From NCBI GenBank assembly GCA_000934665.2, contig JYFJ02004108.1:1-34781 (forward strand): a DNA stretch of 34,781 nt. Reading direction: 5' to 3'. Below the pieces are notes generated by a model. That model saw nothing but the letters and a program-made list of their open reading frames with translations, made no database searches and was not told the origin of the DNA. Within the stretch, counting starts at the first letter, position 1; the number at the start of each line of letters is the position of its first letter. The DNA comes from Catajapyx aquilonaris. Taxonomy: Eukaryota. Made by a program: the position numbers and the translations under genes. This document shows positions 1-27,800 of this stretch, piece after piece.

Positions 1-322
1 GTTTATACATAGTCCGCAAGGATTTTAATATTATAGAAGAAACATGGAATATCCAACTTATTTTTATTAGCTCCTGCTCTTCATTCCACAATGGACTAGC
101 ATTTAGGTACATTCCTGTCAATATACTCCATCACACTCAATAAATACGAATTATTAACACACCAGAGCTTATCCTATCACTTTACCTCTCTCGGAAAAAT
201 GAGAGGAGAATAATATTTCAACAATACATTTAGTAACTCGTCAATCAAGAAAACTTAAAATATTCTTCACATTTATCCAGTAGGATATTCACAGTTCTTT
301 CACTGGCCTGGGGCATTATTGC

Positions 323-1842
323 TCACATGCCAAATGGAGCCACCCTCCACACTGCCACCCTGGCCCTCCCCTTCAATGCTACATCCATCCCCTTGTCCCA
401 CACCAGTTGTCGCACATCATGACTGGGCTGCTTCCTAATGTTGGCCAGCAACCATAAACTCTCCTGACACACATGCTGACACTCATGACCCAACAGCATG
501 TCCATCACTGATGTTGAATTAGGGTGGTACAGGAACTCCATAGCTGCCGATTCACTTCCCCAGCACCAGTTGGCCAGGCAACGGACAGATGGAGTTATCC
601 ACAGGACATCATCGGAAGACGACAGTAAACGTTGCAGGTGTGATGTAAGGTGAAAGATTAGGCGGTTTGACAAGAAGATTCCATCGCAGGTTTGGTGACC
701 AGAGAGGATTGACATCACCCAGTAAGATTCAGAAAGGGTTGGAGATATGACCAGTGGTATGAGTTGGCGGGAGAGTGAAGCAAGTTCTTCATCCCTATAC
801 GTAGGGAAAATTGGAACTTTTATGAGTCAGAATTTCTAGGATCATTGGCTCTATTTTAAGACCTAGCTTACAATATTGTACATACAAAAGTAAAAAGGCT
901 ATCAGTTGACAAGTAATGTCATCGAAGTAGCAGAGTTGGCAGAAGTCTCTCAAGATACTTTTGTTAATTGCAGTGTGTGACATTCTCCACAAACATTGTT
1001 AATCAAGACAACAGACAATCATACTGCATTCATTAAAAGCTTGCCTATAGATATTTAATTAGAAACTATTCCCCACAATTCTTACAACCTCATACTTAGA
1101 GTGTCAGTTGAATAATTTGATCACTTGTACTGGTACCTGACGTTGTGCATGTCGACCCTCACATAGTGATAGGTGGCATACAGTGCGGACTGGACTACAT
1201 TTTTATATGGTGATGATAGCAGCCCCATAAGGCTAACCAGCACATTTTGTGCTCTCAAGACCTGGCATACAGCTTCCCCACTGGCTGCCAGATTTCCAAT
1301 TGCCCAGCAACATGCATCCTGAGCAAGACAAAGGTCAGTGAGATTCAAAATGACATGAGAGAAAAACAACAGCAAATTAGTACCTGCAGGGAACTCCCTG
1401 AGTCCAAGCAAACCACAAGGTATGACGAGCACACTAAGGCAACATGTTTGGGAACATCCCCACTTCCGAGAGCAAGGTTGGTAACAATATTTGCAGCTTC
1501 CAACTGGGTGGCTGCATCACCAGCACTCAAAACAAATCCAATGGCTTCAATGACACCAGGTACATTGGCTACTGCATCTGAAAATCTCCCTCCCTGCGAG
1601 AGCCCTTCCTTCAAGTTCCTTAGTGTTGTAACACTGACTGGTTTTTCATCTTTGAGTATTGTGGCTAATCTCACCACATCTGAAACCGTGTAGGCCTTCA
1701 AAACACCAAACGCATTAGATTCCGGCCCAAATCTGAGACGACTAAGGATCTCATCTCTTCTGAGCTGACGGCCCTGGGACATCAAGGCACGGCGGTGTTG
1801 CCTGCTGTCGTAGTCCTCATTGCTGTCCCTGCTTGTAGACAT
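323..1842 (-). CDS. TMCO6: TMCO6-like importin-alpha-related armadillo-repeat protein, about 370 aa, 3 exons (1842-1384, 1318-1137, 794-323)
   Basis: IBB-like basic N-terminus (RQHRRALMSQGRQLRRDEILSRLR) and ARM-type segments QLEAANIVTNLA, CSSYLVVCL, CCWAIGNLAASGEAVCQVL, QESLWLLANI resembling TMCO6. GT-AG introns 1383-1319 (phase 0) and 1136-795 (phase 2) join into one open frame. An alternative in-frame ATG lies at 1887. Minus-strand AATAAA near 63-68. Confidence 0.8.
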
Positions 1843-2411
1843 CCTTATAGAGCATGTCAATTTCAAAAATTCGCCATGTTTCTTCATTCAGGTCCAAAAC
1901 TTTTCCTGCGACACAGATAAGGATGATTCACTGAATTACTCATCACAACAGCCCGAAACAAAAGGATACTGACATGGTATGCCCTAATTTGCCGCTCTGA
2001 ATTATAAATGTGGAGCTTTCCTTGCACATGGATACTGTCGCCTAGCTTAAATTCTTCAAACACCTGATCACTTTCCAATAGAATGCACTCGTTAAGTGCT
2101 TGGATCCCTTGCTGGTCACTCTCATTGCTTGCTTCCTCTGGCCTTTCAGCATGACCATTGGTGATGCCAGCCCCTTCAGCGGGCTGAGGTTCTTTGTGAA
2201 AGACGGTCACCGGGATGTGGCCAGTCCCGTCATCCACCACGTAGATCCCTTTGTCCCAGGCCTTCTGCTGGCTCACCACCACGCCCAGCACATCCACACG
2301 AGACCTGCACTTCCCATAGAACACGATGGAACTATCGTCCTGGCTCAGTGGACAGGCAACCAGGTCGCAGATCCACAGTTTGGTGTACACATGCTTCTTG
2401 CCTGCAGCCAT
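1817..2411 (-). CDS. STN1: CST complex subunit STN1 (OBFC1)-like, N-terminal OB fold only, 176 aa, 2 coding exons (2411-1970, 1905-1817)
   Basis: Motifs KLWICDL, RVDVLGVVV, YVVDDGTGHI and LGDSIHVQGKLHIYNSERQI match the STN1/RPA2-type OB fold. Removing intron 1969-1906 gives RKVLDLNEETWRIFEIDMLYKDVYKQGQQ*, matching the helix that follows the STN1 OB fold (human-like KVDDP..ARMLELPTIYRKVY). Confidence 0.85.
1906..1969 (-). other. U12-type (minor spliceosome) GT-AG intron of STN1, 64 nt
   Basis: 5' site A|GTATCCTTT is the exact RTATCCTTT consensus. Branch-like TCCTTATC at 1923-1916 lies about 12 nt before CAG|, with no strong polypyrimidine tract. Splicing here restores the STN1-like C-terminal helix. 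Confidence 0.85.
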
Positions 2412-2441
2412 TTGCAAGTGATGCTTCTACAAATCAAACTG

Positions 2442-2498
2442 CTGTCAGTCAAAATAAATATGACTCTGAGGGATCAATTATTTCCGCGAAATACTCAC
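2442..2498 (-). other. Probable 5'-UTR intron of STN1
   Basis: Donor GCG|GTGAGT at 2498 and acceptor TTTTGACTGACAG|CAG at 2442/2439. The 57-60 nt size is slightly below the other short introns in the window. Confidence 0.5.
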
Positions 2499-2729
2499 CG
2501 CATGATCCCACTTGCAAAATCCATCCAAATTAACAGCGATACTAACGATTACATAGCACGCAAATTAGTTCAATGTCCCCAACCGGTTCCTAATAATGAG
2601 AATATGCTGAATTCAATTTTAATATTAAGTATCTTAGCCTAAATTCTCTAAATTCCTCTAATCATCACCCTAACTAAATCATTAACACATAATGACATGA
2701 AGTTCTATTGGCAACTGAAGCTTATAACT

Positions 2730-2788
2730 TCGGCTCACAATTGGCTACATAAGAGCTCGGTGCTCAGACGTAGCCAATTGTGAGCCGA
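2730..2788. repeat. Perfect 19-bp inverted repeat (hairpin) upstream of STN1
   Basis: tcggctcacaattggctac (2730-2748) and gtagccaattgtgagccga (2770-2788) are exact reverse complements around a 21-nt spacer. Confidence 0.9.
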
Positions 2789-4035
2789 GTTTCTACTACT
2801 GGCTCAAATGGCGGAAATTTTTAACAATAACTTATTAATTAAACTGTATATCATGCAGTTTTGAGGCGGTTACGATTGCCACATTCAGTGTTACAAATAC
2901 GACATCCATTCTGTCAAGAGCTAATATATCATAGCAGGATGGAAAAGCCAGCATTAACAACAATAAACCACAGATAAAGCCCTACCTTTTCTCATGGCAC
3001 TGGAAAGGGAGTGCAAATCTGCCTTGGCACGTCTGGAGAGTGGTGACAACAAGAAGAAAACTCGACCTAGCAAAAATGACAGGGACAGGACGACCTAATA
3101 TATTGTTATCAACCAGTTTGTCCATATACCCCATCTCTCAAGATATGCAATGGCTGACAAGTCCGGAGTCTACTAAACAGCATGTTTCCACCCTGGTCAG
3201 CAAACACACACAGAAGGTGAACTAATGTCTGTAAAATCCATTTATCCGGAAAGAAAAGATACCACATGCAACAAGGGGTTACATTTTTGGTGGACACAGA
3301 CTACCAGACTCCTCGGACTACCCACGAATGTGTACATGGACTACCGAGCGGACTACCCTTAGTGAATAACCCCTTGACATGCAACAAAGGATGAGAAAAA
3401 GCACTCAAGGGGAGGTTCAAGGCAATATACGAGTAAGTCTCAGCCATCATTATTATTCTTGGAAACTATTTTCATGCTTTATTTCACTCATATTCAAAGT
3501 TGCATAAAGAATGATCTGCAAAATTACATGGGGATTAGCCAGCACTGATTAAAGATAGATGGTTCCTTTCTCTACTCTTTGTCTAGGGGTCTAGGGTCTA
3601 GACCATTGTGTCACCCCCACACTTACGTAGTGTGGGTGGAAGAACCCACTGGATGACTCCGTTTTATCATATGCGTAATAAAACTAAAATTAACATGAGA
3701 TTATCACCACAGTACAGTTAAAATCACCATGATCAATTAGAGTAACTTCATCTTGGATTATTATCACTTGAAGCTACAGTCCAAGACGTAGTACCACCCA
3801 AAATATGGCCAATGATTATTCATGAGGTTCAACTTGCTAGTTGCAGCACTTTTCATTACTTTCATCAGATATCCCAGTAATAATTATTCTAACAAAATTA
3901 TCCTCAATGTTGCCTTCATGACACTCACATGGCACTGTCAAACCTTCAATATAAACACCTTACAGACTAGCTGGTCACACACCAGTAAATAAATGATTTG
4001 TAATGATCATAGATTCTTGACAAGAAACTATCCGT

Positions 4036-6047
4036 TTAATAGCGTTCTCTTTGATAATGATCCCTCCTGGAGTCTGACCATCTGTCTCTATGTCTGTGAT
4101 GATCCCGGCTAGTGCTCCTTTTCCTGTTGGAGTCCCGAATATTGTCGTATCGACGATGGAATCCTCGCTCAGGTCTCTCAGGTCTTGATGTACTGTCATC
4201 ATTATTACTCTGGACTGTCTCGTTCTCCTCCTCCACTTCATCTCTCGTATCGCAGCTAGGCTCTCCCTTGGAGTCACTCACATCAAACAGAATCTGCATT
4301 TGGCTGTCTATCACTTCCTTCATGATCTGAAATGTCATATATTGGTAGATAATAATTATTACCATATACCTAAACACTGTAGAAAGCTGAAAAGTCAATC
4401 CTAACCTCAGTTTGAGACTTCCTGTTGGTGTGGACTTTCTTGCCCTTGTACGTAGCACGACGGCGCCTAGCATCTCTTTCAGCAGCTAGTTTTTCCATAA
4501 TATCCTTAGATTCTGGCTTGGTTTTATCACTGAAACATTTTCAACGCAAGGTTTTTGTGAAAGCTCCACTTTTACTTTTATTGATGTGATAGTGTTTGTC
4601 GTTAACCATGTAAGTATTCAGCCTTAGAATAGTACTGATGTTTCAGTGGGCAGCAACATCAACAATGTAACTACTGCAGGAGAGTGTGTTGTTGCAAATG
4701 TAATTTCCATCCCTCTATTACAGGTGGCTCATTTCTACCCCATAAAAATGACTAGACCAGGCTTCTTTTCAAAACCACTTTACCCAATGAAATTATTTCA
4801 AAAGCCACTTGCCCTTTTGGAAAAGAAAAAAAACCAATCAGCATTTTTAGGACACAAGATGCTGATTCAATTTTTTATCTTATTTTCGATCATTGCACTG
4901 ATGAGAACATACTTGTATTTATGCCACATGTGCAACTTATCATTATTATTTGTTTCCAAGGTATTCAAAATGCGTAATGTATTTAAAAGTTGCTGTATTA
5001 AGTAATTAGAAAAGAGTACCTATTGGAGATAGAAGAAAGCTCTTCGAACAAAAGACGCTTTTCCTCTGCAGCAGCTGCTGCAGTCTTCTCTACAGCATAA
5101 TCATACAATATTAGCCTCTCCTCCCTGCTGAACTGTGACTGAATCCGATTGGCCGTCTTCGGAACCAGATGCAAATCTGCAATAATAACGTCTTCAGTTT
5201 TTAAGCTACCTGGTTAACTCATTACAAGTGACTTTGAAAAGGATATTTCAAAAAGGATATATCTGCTACACGTCTGAGATGCTGAAAAAGCACAAATAGT
5301 TGGCATGACCCCTGTTTTTTCCAGATTTCGAGAGGCAGTACCCATTTACCTGCACTGTCTTCAGATCCACGCTGATGTGATAATAGAGCCACTTGAAGTG
5401 CTCCATCTGAAATGATGACCAATACATATTACAATGCATCTCAATCTTCTTGGAGCATTCTTATTTAGAACTGTGGCAATTTGTCTTTCACTACATTATA
5501 TTGAGAGCAGAATTGTGTGCTTTTGCATAGCTCCCAAGAGGCTAACTCTGGCGTATAACTTCCGCCTTCTAAAATCAAAGTCGACCGCAGAAGAGATTAT
5601 TACAAATTCAAAATTACATATGTAGGCAAATACCGGCACCTATTGTTATAGACTGAAATCCTGGAGTTTGCGAATTAAACAATCCAGCTGAGGGAAGCGG
5701 TACGTCCTTATCATTGTATCCTTCCCTCTTCCACGAGCATTGTTCCAGGTGCTTCCCCAGAGATTCTTTAGGGACCAGGTGGCCTTTATCCAGTGGGCAT
5801 GTGACAGTCAATAATGATGGTGGATCCTTTAAAAAATTTCACAACTTAAAATGGAGTCACCTGTATCATAAATTGCCAGAACATAACGTACCGTCAATAA
5901 GTGCTTCAAAAATAATACCTGATTGAAATCCCAACCGACTCCCCCTGCGACCCTCTTGAGCGTCTCCTCTGAAGTCTTGATGAACTCCCCCAGGTCTTCC
6001 ACGAGCTTCCTTCGCCTGGAAATCTCCTCAGGGCTTACCGTGGACAT
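4036..6047 (-). CDS. SNRNP48: U11/U12 snRNP 48 kDa protein, about 314 aa, 6 exons (6047-5919, 5826-5640, 5406-5350, 5176-5020, 4529-4406, 4326-4036)
   Basis: CHHC zinc finger (CPLDKGHLVPKESLGKHLEQC), then FSREERLILYDYAVEKT and LAAERDARRRRATYKGKKVHTNRKSQTEIMKEVIDSQM, and an RS/RD-rich tail, all characteristic of U11-48K. All introns are GT-AG and phase-consistent. The exon 2 donor could also be at 5633 (same phase). Confidence 0.92.
5238..5260 (-). promoter_or_regulatory. USSE-type element (tandem U12 5' splice-site motifs) in SNRNP48 intron 3
   Basis: ATATCCTTT-TTGAA-ATATCCTTT (5260-5252 and 5246-5238) lies inside a U2-type intron, 21 nt downstream of a cryptic acceptor TGCTTTTTCAG| (5282). 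Confidence 0.88.
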
Positions 6048-8779: not shown

Positions 8780-11700
8780 GTGACAGGTCAAGTTCAGGCA
8801 AACTAACAGTATGCATTCGGCATTTTTTTCCTTTTATGAACACGCACGTAGTAAGCTTGCACCGTATATCAATTGTGTGATTTTTAATTGTTCATTGTAT
8901 GGGAGACATACATGAGAATGTACATGAGAAGCAACCAAAGTTGAGGGAACTAATGCGGTCATTAAAACCGGGGTCGTCTCCTGATGAAGTCGGATTTCTG
9001 GTCGTACTCATTTACAGTTTAAAAAATATTGTCACATCATGAGAATCGCTCTTATTAGAACATGGGATTTCACTGCTTGCTGTTATGTTATCCTCATTAG
9101 TTAATGACTTCAGTTACTCGTCGGCATGCTTTGTAACTAGAACAGTATAACTGTGCGTGTACAACGTAATATCGATGTATGCACGAAGAATCCAGGTGTA
9201 AAATAATTAGGCTGCTGTGATATCCAGAGTGTCATGCAGCTGGATGAAGGATTAGGACACAATGGAAAATCCAGTTTTTCATTTGGGTGGGCCATCTTAT
9301 CTCCTGAAGGATAAGGCCGGTTATGTGAAGCGTGGAACCGGCTTTTAATTAACGCCATCTGACAATTCCTTCACTTCTGAGGTTATATCCAAGATGTGCA
9401 TATTTTACTGCAAACAACAGGAACAGAAGACACCACGATATCCTTCCGGATGCAGCCATCCCGCAGATAAGACCACAGATATCACCAAAAATAGGCTCAA
9501 ATTCCTCCTGCGGAAGTTGGGGCGTTGACATCTAGTTATATGAGGGTTGGGTTGTATTCTATTCTACTTTGCCAGCAGCTTCTAGCAACCTCACAGCCTC
9601 TCTCTCACTAGATAGGCGTTCTCCACATTCTTCTCTTCCTCCCCTTGGCCTTCATGCAGCTTCCTGCTGGGCATCTACCACTGATGCTGATGGACCACCA
9701 CCCCCTGTAATTCACCATGAAATATTCACATGCAAGGATTGTAACACATACCAACAGGAACGTGCCACGTGACATTGTCACTGTAACTCCAGAGATGGGC
9801 AGGGTGAAAGTATATTGCGATTCAAATGGGGCGTAATGACCTCAAGTATGTGAAAATGAACTTTGTCCACTGCTTCAGGGGCTATTTTGCAAGCAGTTAC
9901 GAACTCCGGTGGCGTCAGACAATTAGCTATTTTTTTTGTAGCTTCAACCAACTAATCTGTCGTAGATAAGTCTGGTATGGCCACCCAACAGTGGTCATTA
10001 GTTACAGCAACAGGTTTTTGCGAACTAGCTTTTTTTTTGTTGTTTGGTTGGAGACATGACGCGAGGAAAAGAAGTTTGAAATTAACGAGGAGAAGGAACG
10101 GAAGACGTGGGTTGGGCCCAATTGCAGCCCGAATAATAGTTTTCTCCTTGGATGAAATAGAAGAAAGGCCGCGTCCTTCTAATCTGCGTGTGTGCAAATC
10201 AGCATAACCTGAATACATCCCCCATTATTATGCAACTGGATGGAAGAACCGCAAAGGACACTCCCATCATTGGATGCTCAATGGCCTGTAGATGTTTGAC
10301 CTACGTGTTTTTCTTTGGTGACCAATGCATCGTATGGCCCACTTCTTAACCATGGTTTCATTTCGCGCACTGCTGGAAGCATATGGTAGTAGTAATCGGA
10401 TTTCCGGCAGGTGGATGATGTTATCCACTTCAACTTTGCCTTTCGAAACGTATTGCAGGTCATGCACGCCGCTTATTAGCTGTTTTAATACCCCATGGAT
10501 ATGATCATTAAAATATTAAGTTGTATTACCATTCGCATGGGTAATCTTAGCAACCGGCCTCTTTGGTGTTATAGAAAGCAGGCCTTCCGGTTTTGGGCTT
10601 GTACATTTTTTCGACTTTTTTTTTTTTGGGGGGGGGGGNGGGACCAATTTGTAGGAGAAAGCCGGCCATTACGTACGATTCGACACGTGCACACTACTGG
10701 GTACAATACCAGGGTGCAACTCATCGCGAGGGAAAGGGAGTTATTGTATAATTTTACCTGAGGATCTGAAGCACCATTATTTTCCAAACCAGAAACCGGC
10801 TGTACATATGGCTTTCTCCAGAAGGCCACGAGCAGCTGTGGTTGTTGTTGTGGGGGAAATAAATTAAAAGCGGGGTGACCCCCCTCTCCACTTACATATA
10901 TGGAAGGGTCACCCTTCCTGCGAACTACAAGCGGTATACGCACCTGGACCACGTCCGCTTGTTTTTTTTTTCTGAACCTGGCAAAAACCGCGGGAATGAC
11001 ATTCGAGAGCAGTTATTAATCTGTGGTGGAGGATTCGTGTGAGAAACAGCTGACCAACATATATTGCGTGACAGTGACAGATGGTAAATTCATCCCCGGC
11101 TCTTCCCTCCATGGCTCCCCCGAATGGCTCTGTAAGCATACTACTGCGCATGCTCACAAAGCACGGCCGGTGTGACGTCAGTTGGTTCTTTGGAAGGACT
11201 GTATCGAAATATTTCACATTCCTATATGCTAAAACGTCGCTTGCAAACCTTGCTAAAGGTGTGGACAGCCTGAATATTAAATGGCCACCTTTCACACCCA
11301 GGAGTGACAGGCTGCCCTATGTTGGGGTCACGCGCCATATTGGCTAACGGACAGGTCGGCACGAAAAAGAAATGTATTCGGTTCGAACCCAAAAGGCATC
11401 ACCCTTGTCACAACGCCCACAATCCCACCAGATTAAGAGCAGGTAAACATCTCTTCAGCGAGGGTGAACATGTTGACCTAGACGAATGATGGATGACCAA
11501 CAGGATGATATTCGACCTCGAGGCTTCTGGAAAAAAATGACTTATCGCTTCTGGTGTCCACACCCGATGACCTTTGGCGCGACCATCTTTTGCAGATCCG
11601 AATGGAAGAAGGTGGTGGCCTTCTTCTGAGGAAACATATACGAGCCGGTTTCTCTGTTAGGAAACTCTGCGTGACTGGACACCAACTTTGAACCCCCCCA

Positions 11701-20453: not shown

Positions 20454-20792
20454 GTTCGAGCCGCAGTGTGTGTCAGTGATATCGACCTGAATCGGCAACG
20501 ATGGCAACGGGAATGGAAAAAATCGAAACTTGGGCCACTCAGGCCATAGAAAAAAAGAGCGGGAGAAACTGCGTCTCACCGGAGAGGAGCCATATTGTGT
20601 ACAAAACAATGGGAGATGAGCTACCTGGATCGGTACCGTGAAGATTTCAATCAACTGATTCATCATCGGCGTCTGCGTGTTGAAGGTCTGAGTTCGTGCC
20701 GGAGTCAGGAGCAGTAATGGCGCCCTTTGTGTACGAAGCCATGCCCGCTGGATGCTCATCTGCTGGCACGCTCTAACTAACAGACGCCAGTC
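20454..20792. promoter_or_regulatory. Bidirectional promoter region shared by IFT22 and TYW1, with a candidate RFX X-box at 20494-20508
   Basis: Head-to-head ATGs are 340 bp apart. GGCAACGATGGCAAC has two RGYAAC half-sites 41-55 nt upstream of the IFT22 ATG. Confidence 0.6.
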
Positions 20793-23700
20793 ATGGAGGG
20801 CTTCACCATCCCACTGGTGGGACCCTACTTCTTCCCGACCCTCTTCCTGGCTGCTGTGGTTATCTTCGTGATATTCGCCAACTATGCCAAGTCACTGGTT
20901 CTCTGCGGGAAGCAGCTGGAGGCTGAGCCAGAGGTGGAGGTCAAGCCAGTTGGAGGGGAAGAAGAAGATGAACCAGGGAGCAGCAGGAGGAAGAACAGGT
21001 GCGGTGGGAAGAAGAGCTGCGGGGAGTGCAAGTGCAAGGACAAGGTGGAGGCCGTGCAGGTCTTCTACGGAACGCAGATGGGGAAGGCGAAGAAGTTTGC
21101 GGAGATGCTGGCGGAGGAGGGCAAGAGGAGGGAGTTGGCCGTGAAGATTGTTGACATGGGCCAGTACGACCCAGAGGACAACCTGGTGCAGGAGGTGTGT
21201 GCTGTTGCCAGTACTGGCTGGAGAGCCAAACAGATTGCATGGTTTAAGTGTTACTGAAAGGAGAATGTCTCATGTCAGAAGATCTTGACGCGCATTTATT
21301 AACACTTGTTTGTTAGTAGTTCAGATGCTAACCCAGAAGCTGCAAAATGTCACAGATTTAACACATTGCATACTGTGAATCTATGTTGAAAGCTCTGCTT
21401 GTTCTCATTTCTTAGGTTGCTTAAAATGTCTCATAAGGAAGCCATTTACTAATTCTTTGACTGTGACCTTCACAAGGGGAAATGGTCACTCCATGTAAAT
21501 ATTGCACAAATTATTTCATTAAACAGAGACCATACCAACCAGAGTACATCAGCAGATCAAGTAGTTCAGTCACATGTGGTTGGATCTTGTTTATAAATGA
21601 CGGCAGAGGTCAAGGTTGCTACAAAATTGGCATCATTCCTGGATGTGGGGGTTGTTGACTGGAGAGTTTATTTTGCAATTGGACTTTGGCCATGACACTT
21701 GATATTCCTTGAAACAAGGGCATAAGGTGGCTGTTTTATCCCATTGTAAACAAAGGGTGATCAATATGACAAAAATTTTGGGCATTTTTGCCATGATGGT
21801 TGTATGGAGACAATTGTAAGGATTCCTTGACACGCTATATTTAACAATATTTAGGTAATGGATTGAAAATGCAAGTTGCGATTCAGCCATAATGAGTTGT
21901 TAGATGTAATGTGTAACAAGGGATGTGTCAGAAGGTAGTTTGTTCAATGCCAAAGCATTAGAAAACGTTCCAGTTTCAAACTAATTGATTAATTTTGTAG
22001 CCCAGACATTTCTCCAGGGAAATGTTGACCGAAGTTTGGATCCTTTAATTTTTTTAGTCGCACAAAAAAAATCATTCCTCACTTTTTTGAATGCCACTGA
22101 CTATTACTAATACACCTGTGAACAATAAGTGTAATTGTTGAACCATAAGTGTGTGCAGGAAGCTACAGCCATCATAAAAACTTGTGCATTTTCCATTATG
22201 TAATGTTGTTCAAGTTGTAGTTACGTTAAGCTCTGCTGATAATTTTAAGGGCCTTCTATGAAAATTCTTATTTGCAGGTGTCTGGAACCAATGTGAATGT
22301 GTACATAGTTTCTACCTATACTGATGGGACACCTCCGGAGTCCTGCAGGTGGCATTTCAAGTGGCTGGAGGAGGCCACCAATGACTTCCGCCTCCAGAAA
22401 GGATTGCTTAAAGGGATGAGATACACTGTTTTTGGTCTTGGGAACTCCCTTTATGCTGATCACTACAATCAGGTATTAGTCAAACATGGTGGGAGTGAAG
22501 GTTAGTGCTAATCTTAGTAATTTTATTTCTTCAGGCAGCGAAAAACCTAGACAAATGGTTCCACAAGCTCAAAGCAACTCTATGCTTCCCTCCTGGTCTG
22601 GGTGATGAAAATGCATCCCCTGGCACTGAATCGGATTTTGAAGAGTGGTCCTCCAAGTTCTGGGATTGGGTTGATCGAAGCATAGAGAAACGAGCCAAAC
22701 GGAAATGTGGCTGCAAGAATAAAAACAAAGATGGCATGGGTGCAGAAACAGCATTACCTGAAAGCGAGTCAGAGAATTGTGGCTGCAAGACAAAGGGCAA
22801 TGATGAAGGCATAAGCATGGATTCATCTTCAGATAGCGAGTCAGAATCAATTGACACTGGTATGGTGGATATGGAAGACCTTGGCCGTGTTGTGGCCCGC
22901 CCCCCAAGAAAAGCGGCAAATGGTGTACTTCCAGAGATGGTAACACCCTCATTACGTGAGACCCTCACGAAGCAAGGTTACCGCCTGGTTGGCTCTCATT
23001 CTGGTGTCAAGATGTGCCGATGGACAAAGTCAATGCTTCGTGGTCGAGGCGGCTGCTACAAGCACAGCTTCTATGGTATAGAGAGTCATCGCTGCATGGA
23101 GCTGACCCCAAGCTTGGCCTGTGCCAACAAATGTGTCTTTTGTTGGCGACATCACTCGAATCCTGTCGGAACCAGCTGGACCTGGAAGATGGACCAACCT
23201 GAGATGATTCTGGAGGAAGGACTCGCCAATCATAGGGCAATGGTTAATGAGTTTAAAGGTGTGCCTGGAGTTGTTCCTGAGAAGATTAAAGAAGGAATGG
23301 ATGTGCAGCATTGTGCCCTGAGCCTTGTGGGGGAGCCTATCATGTATCCAGAGATTAACAAGTTCCTGGGAATGCTGCATGGGAAGGGAATCTCCTCCTT
23401 TTTGGTCACCAATGCACAGTTTCCTGATGCTATCCGGTATGAAAGGCTTCAGGTTAAGGAGAAGTGCATCATGTATCTCCTTAATATATCTCATGGTGCT
23501 TTTTTTGAAGGAACCTGGTGCCTGTAACTCAGCTCTACCTCAGTATTGACGCTTCCACTAAGGACAGCCTGAAGAAGATTGATCGTCCATTGTTCCGTGA
23601 TTTTTGGGAGCGCTTCTTGGAGAGCCTGAAAGCCTTGGCTGAGAAGGGGCAAAGGACAGTGTACAGGCTCACCCTGGTTAAAGCTTGGAATGTCGATGAG

Positions 23701-24396
23701 CTTGAAAACTATGCCAAGCTTGTTGGTATTGGACACCCTGATTTCATTGAGATTAAGGTAAATGAAAATGTCTTACAAGTTTGAAGCAAAATGAAGGATA
23801 CAATATGCGTACAAGTTTTGAGATCACAAATTCTGATGCATGGGATCTTGAATAACCAACCACTATTGTCTTTCCAGGGTGTGACATTTTGTGGGACTTC
23901 CAAAGCCAGCAACTTGACAATGGAGAATGTGCCCTGGCATGAAGAAGTGGCAGAATTTGGCGCCAAGCTTGTTGCTGTGCTCCCGAACTATGAGATTGCC
24001 TCTGAGCATGAGCACTCAAACTGCATTTTAATTGCCCACAAGAAGTTCAAGATAGACGATGCATGGTGGACTTGGATTGATTATGCTAAGTTCCACCAGC
24101 TCCTGAAAGCATATGAAGAGTCAGGTGGAGAGAAGACATTCACAGCAGTGGTGAGGAATAGTGTGAACTAATAATTATTGAGAAAATCAAATGGTCTAAA
24201 GGAGTGTGTTGTATTTAAGTTTCTCTCTGAAGATCATTAATCTCAGATAGTGTGAATTGTTAAGTAAAAATTCTTTTTGCAGGATTACATGAGTAAGACA
24301 CCTAGTTGGGCAGTGTTTGGTGCGGCCGAAAGAGGATTTGATCCTGCAGAGACACGATGGCACAGGAAAGGAAAGAAGATGGATGGTGGATGTTGA
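20793..24396 (+). CDS. TYW1: S-adenosyl-L-methionine-dependent tRNA 4-demethylwyosine synthase, about 710 aa, 6 exons (20793-21194, 22278-22472, 22535-23436, 23511-23757, 23878-24150, 24283-24396)
   Basis: N-terminal hydrophobic anchor, flavodoxin domain (FYGTQMGKAKKFA, STYTDG, FGLGNSLY), LTKQGYRLVGSHSGVKMCRWTK, radical-SAM CxxxCxxC (CANKCVFC), EHEHSNC and ERGFDP motifs. All introns are GT-AG and in phase. Confidence 0.97.
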
Positions 24397-24845: not shown

Positions 24846-27800
24846 TCACGTGAGTTTCTCCCAACACTTGTCCCAGAAGGCTTTAAGCCTGTTTTTATCA
24901 TTGGCACAAAATCCCTGGAAATCCCGCAGCACCTTGTTCTGGAAGTTTTCATCTCCAAGGGTGTGGTTGGGAGAGTATCTCCATCGCTTGCTGACCAGAT
25001 AATTCCAGGACCATAAAAATCCAATCTGAATATAAAACGGTGGCACAATGAGAATTACATGGGCATTCTTGGGACTTGGATGTAATCAGAGCACATTGAA
25101 CTGTCGTAGTAAATGAAGAATATTTACCCTCCGCTCTTCATCGTAGGAGTCTTTATTCTTTCCTGTGACATGCCTGGTGATGTATTCCTCATGTGGGCTG
25201 GGAACAGGCATCTCTCTCTGCACCTTCCTTGCATTTGATAACCTAGGCCCGCGGGAGCTGTTCACAATTGGGGTTCCACCAACTTGCGGATGCAGCTTGG
25301 TTGGGATAAGTATGAACATGTTCCCTGTGGTGTGGACATATTGATGTTGTACAGGGAGATTGGGGCGGCGGTGCTGTTGCTGGCTTTGGTCCAGTTGGCA
25401 ATGAGTGAACCCAAATTGGTGGGCTATCAGTTCTTGGAACAGGAACAGGCGCTGCTCCCAGGTCTCTTCTGGAAATTCTGAAATACGTAAATATGGTTTC
25501 ATTATCAAATTTTGATACTCAACATTGGGTTATGAAACTCTGACTTTAAAAAATAAACTTTCAATGACAGATAGTGTATGAAAAAAAAGAGTAAAATGTT
25601 CTTCGTAATTTTCTACAACTTGTAATAAGACCTCACAACAGCAGCTAATCCAAGATGTCACTGAGGCAAAAGGCTAGGAAAAGATTAAATTTCTTGTGAC
25701 GCAGTTACCTTGAAACAGGTAGCTCTTGTTCTCCAAAAGACACTCGACATCAATGGGTAAAAAGATGGGCCCTCGAAGTGGATCTGACTTGTATGAGTAT
25801 GGCAGAGCAAAGGGATCGTCTGGTACTGGCACAAGTTGGAAGGAGTACAGCTGAGCTTTGCGAGCCCATCCTTGAAGCTGCAATGCAACCACATTGAGTA
25901 ACGTGCACTTACATTAATTAAAATTTCCTTCTACTCATTAAGTGACTGACCAGATCAGTGATGATAGCTCCAGTGGACGTCATCCACTGCACAACTAGCT
26001 CGAATGCTTCATTGGCTTTGTAGATGGACTGATATTTTGCATGCCCCCATTCCTCCCTATCACTCTTAGATCCAATGTCCACATCCAAATAAGCCTCTTT
26101 GTACAGCAGAGCATACCTGACCTTGCTTGGATCTGATATATTTGGGTGGGACAGGTCTTTCTGCAAGAAATCTGGGATGGGGGTGGTGGTTGGGCTACTT
26201 GGCTGGGGGTTTGCAGCAGAATTCAGAGTGCGGTAGAAGAGGGAGCCAACTTCAATCCATTCATTCTGGAAGCTGCTTATGTCACCATTTGGGATGAAGC
26301 CTTCTTCTGTGGTACAAGATACGAATTTATTAGTGCATATTGAACACATCGTTTCTGATTGTAAAATTAGTTTACTGTCGCAATAGATACCAGGGATAAC
26401 CACTACGAGGTTTTAATGGAAGGAAGTGGTGACTACCGATGCATTGCATGGTAGGGAGGCAGGAGAAATAGCCGAGTTAAGCAATTTCACAAACTGGTTG
26501 ATCAATATTGAGCCCTCACCTTTGCTGGATGAATCAATTATATAATACAGGTAGAAGCCGTACTCAAACGGATGGTCAATTTTCCCAGATGCATGACATA
26601 TCAGCTTTTCTTTCAGCATTTCCTAAGGAAAAAATTAATTTATAATAGTTTATTCAGCAAACTAATTAATGGCAAATTACTTTAGGAAAAAGAATTGCTG
26701 TACCTCAAAAATTGAGACGGCTTGCATTTCATTTGCAATGCCTTCCATGTGCTCCACAAGCCACACTGTTGCATCGGCACTTACAAAGGCCAGGTTGGGA
26801 AGGTTTGGATGCTGGCAGAATCCCACACCTGTGACTGAATTTTTCATGGCTTCCAGTATTTCACTGAAGGTGGCAGTGGTCTTCAGAGGTTTTGGATCAA
26901 ATGCCCTGGAAATACACATGAATTGGTCAACATCAGTGCTTGGCTGTTGAGGTTGTCACTGAGGTCATACCCATCATCATGCATGGAGTCTCCATCCTGG
27001 CTGAGATCCAATGAAAGCAGATGAGGTTTCTGATCGCCTACATCCAAGGCTGGGGAGGCCCTTCCATTTGCAGTCCCTTCGCTTTTCATTCTATCCACCT
27101 TGGATCCAGATCTGCAAATGTACATGAAACATTCTGTATATGCAATGTGAACAGCTAGCAATAATCTGAAGAGATATATCGCTTCGGAAACTTTTAAATT
27201 CGTGTTTCACTATATCTCATAGCAGAAATCTTCCAACTATCTGAATACAAAATCCTTGCAGAAGTTATATCCTACTTTTGTTACGCAACTTAAAAACTTG
27301 ACAATATATGTTCCAAACTTTAAGTAATAGTTACAATCAGCCATTATGTGTCATGGATTAGAAGACATAGAAGCACAAGTTACCACACCCAGGATAAAAC
27401 TGATTCTCAAACTTACTTGAAAAGGCCCTTTACCCAATAAAAAATGCAGTATAAAGTTACAAAATTCTGCTGGAACATTTGAAGCCACTCACAGACACCA
27501 AGCAGTGCAAAAATAAAAGGTTGTGACAAGAATCACAGCAACTCACCTGCTGGTTAATCGCTCTACCATGCGAGGGTTGCTTAGCCTTTCCTGTTAGAGA
27601 CAGTACAGGGAAAGTCGTGAATTAAGGCAGGTTCACCTCCACCCAGAACTCAAAAAAAGCTGCAACCCAACCCAACACCATTCCTACTCCCAACAATCAC
27701 CCACCAAAGAACCCTAGGCACAAGTTAAAACGCTGCAGGAGGGGAAAAGAGGCATATGAGTAAAGCTGAGGCCACTGCAGAAGTTAGGCTGTAAATCAAA

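Follow-up and report, generated by a model that had tools for sequence, protein, structure and literature searches.

Overlapping STN1-like and TMCO6-like reading frames in Catajapyx aquilonaris: a candidate dicistronic-type transcription unit

When the stop codon of one gene lies inside the coding sequence of the next gene on the same strand, the question arises of whether the two proteins are made from one message or from two. Such a locus is found on contig JYFJ02004108.1 of Catajapyx aquilonaris, of which positions 1-34,781 (the window) were analyzed. It contains an open reading frame (ORF) for a protein that resembles STN1, followed by an ORF for an importin-alpha-like protein that is here termed TMCO6-like; both genes and all their features are encoded by the minus strand. 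Direct reading and script-based recomputation establish that the STN1-like ORF, in two exons, begins at ATG 2411-2409, ends at TGA 1819-1817 and encodes 176 amino acids. Its 3' end reads AAG GAT GTC TAC AAG CAG GGA CAG CAA TGA, with the TGA at 1819-1817. The TMCO6-like ORF extends from ATG 1842-1840 to TGA 325-323, comprising 370 codons in three exons, and its frame is +1 relative to that of STN1. The ATG at 1842-1840 has an A at -3 (position 1845) and is placed 23 nt ahead of the STN1 stop, resulting in a coding sequence (CDS) overlap of 26 nt (1842..1817) that lies inside one exon and is read in different frames. These values coincide exactly with those of the initial annotation, which had been made from the sequence alone and had described the same stop, the same ATG with its A at -3 and the same 26-nt overlap in another frame. 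Its remark that there is no space between the ORFs for a promoter or a poly(A) site is also borne out, since the ORFs share an exon and overlap.

The two ORFs are bridged by spliced RNA. Contigs from the only public run found to contain this DNA (X1, kind not on record, 0.50 of words) were compared with positions 1-3600. One contig of 1604 nt consists of 2368-1969, 1904-1383, 1317-1136 and 793-294, with 0 other letters and 0 gaps, and the three stretches that it skips each have GT..AG ends on the minus strand. Because the contig skips these GT..AG stretches, the X1 contigs can be assigned to spliced RNA, with the three introns positioned as predicted, and because a single spliced contig bridges both ORFs, the STN1 intron is removed in RNA that continues into the second ORF. 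The evidence for a processed mRNA across both ORFs is thus contig 2368-294, which does not include the STN1 ATG and may represent merged transcripts: it is an assembly, overlapping messages would merge into the same contig, and a single molecule is not provable from it. Contig cover is missing from 2401-3360 and from 841-1080 (within intron 2), and these stretches are uninformative on expression or on the start of transcription.

The distribution of polyadenylation signals points to a common 3' end. Within 2600-1 of the minus strand, AATAAA occurs only once, at 68-63, past the TMCO6-like stop, and ATTAAA occurs only at 1059 (inside intron 2) and at 29. Between the two stop codons, the exonic sequence offers only a weak TATAAA, at 1207. 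As the STN1 stop falls within the TMCO6-like ORF, no STN1 message can end before reaching that ORF, and given that no canonical AATAAA precedes 68-63, STN1 messages most likely run through the whole second ORF and end at a 3' end that both genes have in common. The initial annotation proposed that both genes share one mRNA, and with respect to a shared unit this is supported by the bridging contig and by the lack of an AATAAA before 68-63; its further implication, that both proteins are made from one molecule, goes beyond what contigs that merge transcripts can demonstrate.

The layout itself is that of a dicistronic gene in the FlyBase sense, with two complete, non-homologous tandem ORFs on one strand. 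The stop-to-start distance of -26 nt, for ORFs of 176 and 370 codons, falls inside the range of -34 to +319 nt given for D. melanogaster loci with only polycistronic transcripts (PMC4528330). Overall, the STN1-like and TMCO6-like genes are probably a single transcription unit of dicistronic type, comparable to those annotated in Drosophila. The coordinates of the features are collected in Table 1.

Table 1. Positions of the STN1-like and TMCO6-like features in the window and the basis for each.
Feature	Position	Strand	Basis and remarks
STN1-like coding exon 1, OB fold	1970..2411	-	147 codons + 1 base; contig cover 2368-1969; PDB/Pfam matches
STN1 intron, 64 nt, U12-type signals	1906..1969	-	contig joint 1904/1969; motifs read
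Shared exon	1384..1905	-	contig-continuous 1904-1383, 0 other letters, 0 gaps
Upstream in-frame TMCO6-like ATG, +15 aa	1885..1887	-	weak context, T at -3; in-frame TGA 1890-1888 directly before
STN1 stop/TMCO6-like ATG overlap, 26 nt	1817..1842	-	frames read and recomputed
Stop-start relay candidate	1780..1820	-	sequence reading only
TMCO6-like intron 1, 65 nt, GT..AG	1319..1383	-	contig joint 1317/1383; splice sites read
TMCO6-like coding exon 2, ARM repeat	1137..1318	-	contig; Pfam Arm
TMCO6-like intron 2, 342 nt, GT..AG, ATTAAA inside at 1059	795..1136	-	contig joint 793/1136
TMCO6-like last coding exon, stop TGA 325-323	323..794	-	frame reading; contig
3' untranslated region with AATAAA 68-63	60..322	-	contigs cover 294-793 and 112-312; 3' end position approximate

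The shared exon holds the last 29 STN1 codons (1903-1817, stop included) and the first 153 TMCO6-like codons (1842-1384). Three in-frame ATGs, at 1887, 1842 and 1782, are available to the TMCO6-like ORF and correspond to proteins of 385, 370 and 350 amino acids, respectively. The claim that TMCO6 must start at 1842 or 1887 was thus too strong, as the third in-frame ATG (1782-1780) lies 35 nt past the STN1 stop. A start at this position would abolish the overlap and separate the ORFs by only 35 nt; whichever TMCO6-like start is chosen, the conclusion on the layout is the same. A spliced STN1-TMCO6 fusion was also considered and is excluded by the TGA at 1890-1888, which is in the TMCO6 frame ahead of ATG 1887.

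Both ORFs are, to judge from their homologies, genuine rather than products of chance. In a phmmer search of the PDB with STN1-like exon 1 (147 amino acids), the top five matches are all human STN1, with E values from 8.4e-5 to 6.7e-3. In the best of these (4joi_A, E = 8.4e-5), residues 9-144 of the query align with residues 8-131 of a 166-residue chain of the N-terminal domain. There are 32 residues beyond the aligned OB part in the C. aquilonaris protein, as compared to 35 in the crystallized human STN1 domain, and the STN1-like protein can therefore be equated with the N-terminal OB domain of STN1, ending where that domain ends. The Pfam OB fold model (PF01336) matches exon 1 with an E value of 9.1e-6 and a score of 26 bits, slightly below its cut-off of 27. 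Neighbors in a language-model Atlas, which are to be read as leads only, are short OB-only clusters of 138-183 amino acids, including an arthropod cluster (183 amino acids) and a plant one (159 amino acids) that carries the name 'putative CST complex subunit STN1'. The PDB, near-threshold Pfam and Atlas matches together identify an N-terminal OB fold of the STN1/RPA32 type. In the CST complex, STN1 has TEN1 and CTC1 as binding partners and acts as a stimulator of Pol alpha-primase. The C-terminal tandem winged-helix domains of vertebrate and yeast STN1 are absent from the ORF, which stops 32 residues past the OB fold, and no further STN1 exon is joined in the spliced contig. Word-based protein searches with exon 1 returned no STN1 relatives among proteins of near length or longer, a search of the same type with the TMCO6-like alignment, restricted to proteins of 768-2190 amino acids, returned nothing, and the 28-residue peptide from STN1 exon 2 has no PDB match. 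A single-sequence AlphaFold model of exon 1 has a mean predicted local distance difference test score (pLDDT) of 43 and is too poor for use. Sequence comparison thus describes the STN1-like protein as an OB-only form, without the winged-helix half of vertebrate STN1.

The second protein belongs to a different family. The Pfam Arm model detects an armadillo repeat in TMCO6-like exon 2 (E = 3.4e-4, 21 bits versus a cut-off of 20.6), the best PDB matches are designed ARM proteins, and the Atlas neighbors are Arm/IBB importin-alpha-like clusters with scores of 0.95-0.97. An exhaustive HMMER search of 1.84 billion representatives with the TMCO6-like exon detected 19 proteins with E <=1e-3, none of them with E <=1e-10. 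Seven of the 19 match in a single stretch, at about query residues 28-165. These seven and P0013 (query 63-165) were used as the relatives (n = 8) in an alignment of nine sequences that includes the C. aquilonaris protein. Pfam IBB does not match the TMCO6-like exon itself; three arginine columns are invariant in the nine-sequence alignment, and one of the aligned relatives, P0018, matches Pfam IBB with an E value of 6e-5 and 23.9 bits (cut-off 23.8). The bivalve relative with this Pfam IBB match (6e-5) also matches Arm; annotated as 'hypothetical protein', it is the only named relative, and no sequence named TMCO6 was returned among the relatives. The second protein is, by these comparisons, an importin-alpha-like ARM protein with a putative IBB-like segment. 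The name TMCO6 was not confirmed for this ORF by the searches, and the label 'TMCO6-like' is used because of this.

The same alignment bears on the choice of start codon. The column of Met1842 contains the first residue of five of the eight relatives, and a sixth relative has an internal methionine there. The starts of the relatives are predictions of gene callers, and aligners tend to stack first residues; read in this light, the alignment column favors ATG 1842 as the start of the TMCO6-like ORF.

The intron that precedes the shared exon has signals of the minor class. U12-type GT-AG introns are recognized by a donor of the form /GTATCCTT and by a branch site resembling TCCTTAAC that lies 10-15 nt before the 3' splice site. 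The STN1 intron has the donor GTATCCTTT (GTATCCTTTTGT at 1969) and the sequence TCCTTAT with its A located 12 nt before the AG, in agreement with both motifs, and its splicing is confirmed by the contig. Retention of this intron would bring the STN1 frame to an end at TGA 1886-1884, which overlaps ATG 1887 as ATGA.

A working model of expression can be proposed from these elements. Transcription would begin upstream of the STN1 ATG, the U12-type intron would be excised, and the message would take in the shared exon and then the TMCO6-like ORF in full, as far as the single poly(A) signal (68-63), such that each STN1 message would also hold the complete second ORF. STN1, consisting of the OB fold and the further 32 residues, would be translated by ordinary scanning, and the TMCO6-like protein, with its ARM repeats and a basic, putatively IBB-like N-terminus, would start at Met1842. 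Ribosomes that terminate at UGA 1819-1817 would remain bound to the RNA and initiate again at an AUG close by, either backward at 1842 or by way of a relay at 1782. The candidate relay is suggested by ATGA 1820-1817, which opens a 12-codon ORF in the third frame; the TGA of this ORF (1784-1782) overlaps ATG 1782-1780 (Met21 of the TMCO6-like ORF) as TGATG. This succession of ATGA, 12-codon ORF and TGATG is a possible stop-start relay. On a shared message, restart after STN1 termination is the most likely route to the second protein. A shorter message from an internal start site may be an additional or alternative source of the TMCO6-like protein.

Several observations weigh against the dicistronic interpretation. 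The 1604-nt contig begins at 2368, 43 nt inside the STN1 ORF, and it may equally reflect two overlapping messages. In the spliced RNA, AUG 1842 is preceded by 13 AUGs, which comprise STN1's own and 12 further ones: nine in the TMCO6 frame before ATG 1887, and then 1887, 1877 and 1855. The nine, located between the STN1 start and 1887, open short ORFs of 6-38 codons, the last of which ends at TGA 1890-1888. This AUG load before AUG 1842 renders simple leaky scanning implausible. A first ORF of 176 codons is unfavorable for reinitiation. Termination-reinitiation of the calicivirus type depends on a termination upstream ribosomal binding site (TURBS), in which a UGGGA motif (motif 1) is complementary to 18S rRNA. 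In the spliced RNA, the 200 nt preceding ATG 1842 contain no TGGGA (the nearest copies are at 2316 and 2258), and a TURBS was not detected by this measure. As a separate observation, the nine ATGs that precede 1887 within the STN1 cistron all share the TMCO6 frame, which is probably an effect of codon composition.

The strongest competitor, less likely than a dicistronic unit but a serious possibility, is that two overlapping messages are used separately. A long one would serve STN1 and carry the TMCO6-like sequence as its 3' untranslated region, and a shorter one, for the TMCO6-like protein, would arise from an internal promoter in STN1 exon 1, the intron or the first part of the shared exon. 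No unusual translation step would then be necessary. The many AUGs in the first cistron and the lack of a TURBS-like motif both disfavor efficient downstream initiation, and the contig is unable to tell such overlapping messages from a dicistronic one. However, the internal start site is a hypothetical one, and the promoter would have to sit within the coding sequence of a conserved OB fold. The Drosophila precedents are divided on this point: seven of the 14 overlapping pairs in FlyBase have alternative monocistronic transcripts, mostly from alternative promoters, whereas the other seven are listed as 'all di/polycistronic' (PMC4528330). Two messages could also be generated by alternative splicing of a leader exon upstream of STN1, joined either to STN1 exon 1 or to the acceptor at 1906/1905, with the latter product being a monocistronic TMCO6 message. 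The GT donor at 2498 (GTGAGT) is of good quality and, with an acceptor at 2427, suggests a possible leader intron, and the first AUG past acceptor 1905 is 1887, in the TMCO6 frame. However, the intron that ends with the acceptor at 1906 carries U12-type signals, and the branch and acceptor sites of U12-type introns are incompatible with donors of the U2 type. The contigs contain no such joint, although contigs drop rare forms, and this arrangement is clearly improbable. With regard to a spliced-leader or operon organization, no loose contig end was detected at 1905, with the same proviso that contigs drop rare forms.

The remaining alternatives question one or the other ORF or the junction between them. 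The STN1-like ORF might be a truncated relic, lacking the winged-helix half and acting only as a long upstream ORF or leader, and the missing C-terminal half of vertebrate STN1 and the failure of word-based protein searches to return a relative are consistent with this. However, all 176 codons of the ORF remain open when its intron is correctly spliced, residues 9-144 can be aligned with the N-terminal domain of human STN1 with 32 versus 35 residues remaining, and its nearest Atlas clusters, including the arthropod one and the plant one named after STN1, are themselves OB-only. Proteins of this kind are known, in the form of plant STN1 and Drosophila Verrocchio (Ver), and there is little reason to expect a relic here. 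The OB fold of Ver is structurally similar to the Stn1/RPA2 OB fold (PMC5389638). STN1 would be fused to the TMCO6-like protein if ribosomes underwent programmed +1 frameshifting on reaching the STN1 stop, or earlier, with CAA UGA G read as CAA-[U]-GAG; the TMCO6 frame is indeed +1 to STN1 and open from 1887, and a shift anywhere in 1887-1817 would have this effect. No known stimulatory element was identified, no OB-ARM fusion was present among the longer proteins searched with the STN1 exon (which is weak evidence), and the second ORF has its own start methionine aligned with the starts of relatives, leaving such a frameshift barely credible. An assembly or sequencing indel that creates a false overlap had been named in the initial annotation as an outcome that would overturn its proposal. 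No point was found in its favor. The X1 contig matches 1904-1383 with 0 other letters and 0 gaps, both proteins end or begin where their homologues do, and because the contig reproduces the stop/start sequence without difference, an indel artefact at the junction is very unlikely.

A dicistronic-type unit remains the preferred explanation, and a stronger version of it can be formulated, although it is a doubtful one. In this version the message would be obligately dicistronic: synthesis of the TMCO6-like protein would be mechanically coupled to STN1 termination (backward to 1842, or by relay to 1782), and the slow U12-type intron would set the output of both proteins. Together with moi-Tgs1 of Drosophila (vide infra), this might suggest that small OB-fold telomere proteins of the CST type are recurrently the first cistrons of overlapping dicistronic genes in arthropods, perhaps keeping their dosage low.

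In yeast and human, overlapping upstream ORFs keep STN1 dosage within tight limits (PMC6089452), and an OB-only STN1 as the first cistron of an overlapping pair is a different, unusual translational setting for this protein. If the shared message is real, the locus is a natural test case for how animal ribosomes reach an ORF whose start lies 23 nt ahead of the stop codon of a first ORF of 176 codons. It would also join moi-Tgs1 as the second example of a dicistronic gene that encodes a CST-like telomere protein. The locus also serves as a warning for annotation, as prediction programs are likely to miss the small STN1 gene or to give the downstream gene a wrong start. Upstream of STN1, the stretch 2427-2503 (minus strand) has a possible 72-nt leader intron, with the GTGAGT donor at 2498 and an AG acceptor at 2427, and an ATG at 2503-2501 ahead of it, in a region with no contig cover. 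If it were spliced, ATG 2503-2501 would open an ORF overlapping the STN1 start, recalling the STN1-limiting upstream ORFs (PMC6089452).

Other parts of the window contain unrelated features. The 3' part of an upstream minus-strand gene lies at 3457-3600 and is represented by a 1671-nt contig of higher depth (31); the last coding exon of this gene (about 4039-4485, minus strand) is rich in Arg, Ser and Asp and is matched by no Pfam model. On the plus strand, 20781-24171 contains exons that match Pfam Flavodoxin_1 (6.4e-7) and Radical_SAM (4e-5), an architecture resembling that of the tRNA wybutosine synthesis protein TYW1. The exon at 25921-26412 on the minus strand matches Pfam DEPDC5_CTD (3.8e-15) and is part of a large DEPDC5-like minus-strand gene. 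The single N of the window, at 10639, falls in a region of about 6.7-15 kb that is rich in repeats and in GC, and where both strands contain numerous long ORFs that are spurious.

Conservation of the gene pair was examined in metagenome contigs. Patterns built from the single protein gave 368 matches and those from a two-relative alignment gave 523, and no match of either set was confirmed; the nine-sequence TMCO6-like alignment is too weakly conserved for pattern building. In the literature, a full-text search located no paper naming both TMCO6 and STN1, the TMCO6 papers among the matches listed include none on gene structure, and a search for TMCO6 with importin gave nothing relevant.

Comparison with known systems places the individual elements of the locus. 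The OB-only relatives of STN1, plant STN1 and Ver, resemble the C. aquilonaris protein in having an STN1-type OB fold without winged-helix domains and a length of 150-200 amino acids. The C. aquilonaris protein differs from them in that it still matches human STN1 directly by sequence (E = 8.4e-5). The termination-reinitiation systems of caliciviruses and influenza B virus, which use a TURBS, are similar in that the second start lies within a few tens of nucleotides of the upstream stop; stop-start overlaps are present here as ATGA at 1820-1817 and TGATG at 1784-1780. They differ in the UGGGA motif, which is absent from the 200 nt upstream in C. aquilonaris, and the present case is a cellular gene, for which such a mechanism would be hypothetical. 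In the MOCS2 locus, as here, two conserved proteins (MOCS2A and MOCS2B) are encoded by overlapping frames. Unlike the present pair, MOCS2A and MOCS2B are subunits of one enzyme, and we know of no functional link between STN1 and the TMCO6-like protein. Under the name Mocs2/CG42503, this locus is given as an example conserved from flies to mammals (PMC4528330).

The closest parallels come from the 159 dicistronic pairs described in D. melanogaster (Crosby et al. 2015, PMC4528330). The view that same-strand CDS overlaps are rare, expressed in the initial annotation, holds only loosely, as these polycistronic loci include 14 overlapping pairs (28 rows of File S1), with stated lengths of 1, 4, 8, 11, 16, 29, 34 and 103 nt; for the mei-217/mei-218 overlap, File S1 does not state a length (PMC4528330). 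The pairs CG14550-CG42498 (34 nt) and CG45050-CG43675 (29 nt) are like the C. aquilonaris pair in being same-strand, different-frame overlaps of unrelated genes on one transcript (PMC4528330). The FlyBase pairs differ in their genes and species and in their evidence, with cDNA clones and transcription start site data there as opposed to one assembled contig here. A search of the FlyBase supplement on polycistronic genes that covered all files but one did not turn up Ver (PMC4528330). The nearest counterpart is moi-Tgs1 (CG31241), listed as 'all di/polycistronic' with 'OVERLAP 4 nt' and encoding unrelated proteins (FlyBase File S1, PMC4528330). Moi is the OB-fold partner of Ver, and the two can be docked or modelled like a Stn1-Ten1 dimer (PMC8596017). 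In both loci, a small OB-fold protein, of telomere capping in moi-Tgs1, is combined with a larger, unrelated conserved gene, and the CDSs overlap in different frames. However, the moi-Tgs1 overlap is a 4-nt ATGA whereas that in C. aquilonaris is 26 nt, the partner is a trimethylguanosine synthase instead of an importin-alpha-like ARM protein, and the telomere protein in C. aquilonaris is STN1-like. The layout is thus of a known kind, and the combination of STN1 with a TMCO6-like protein appears to be new.

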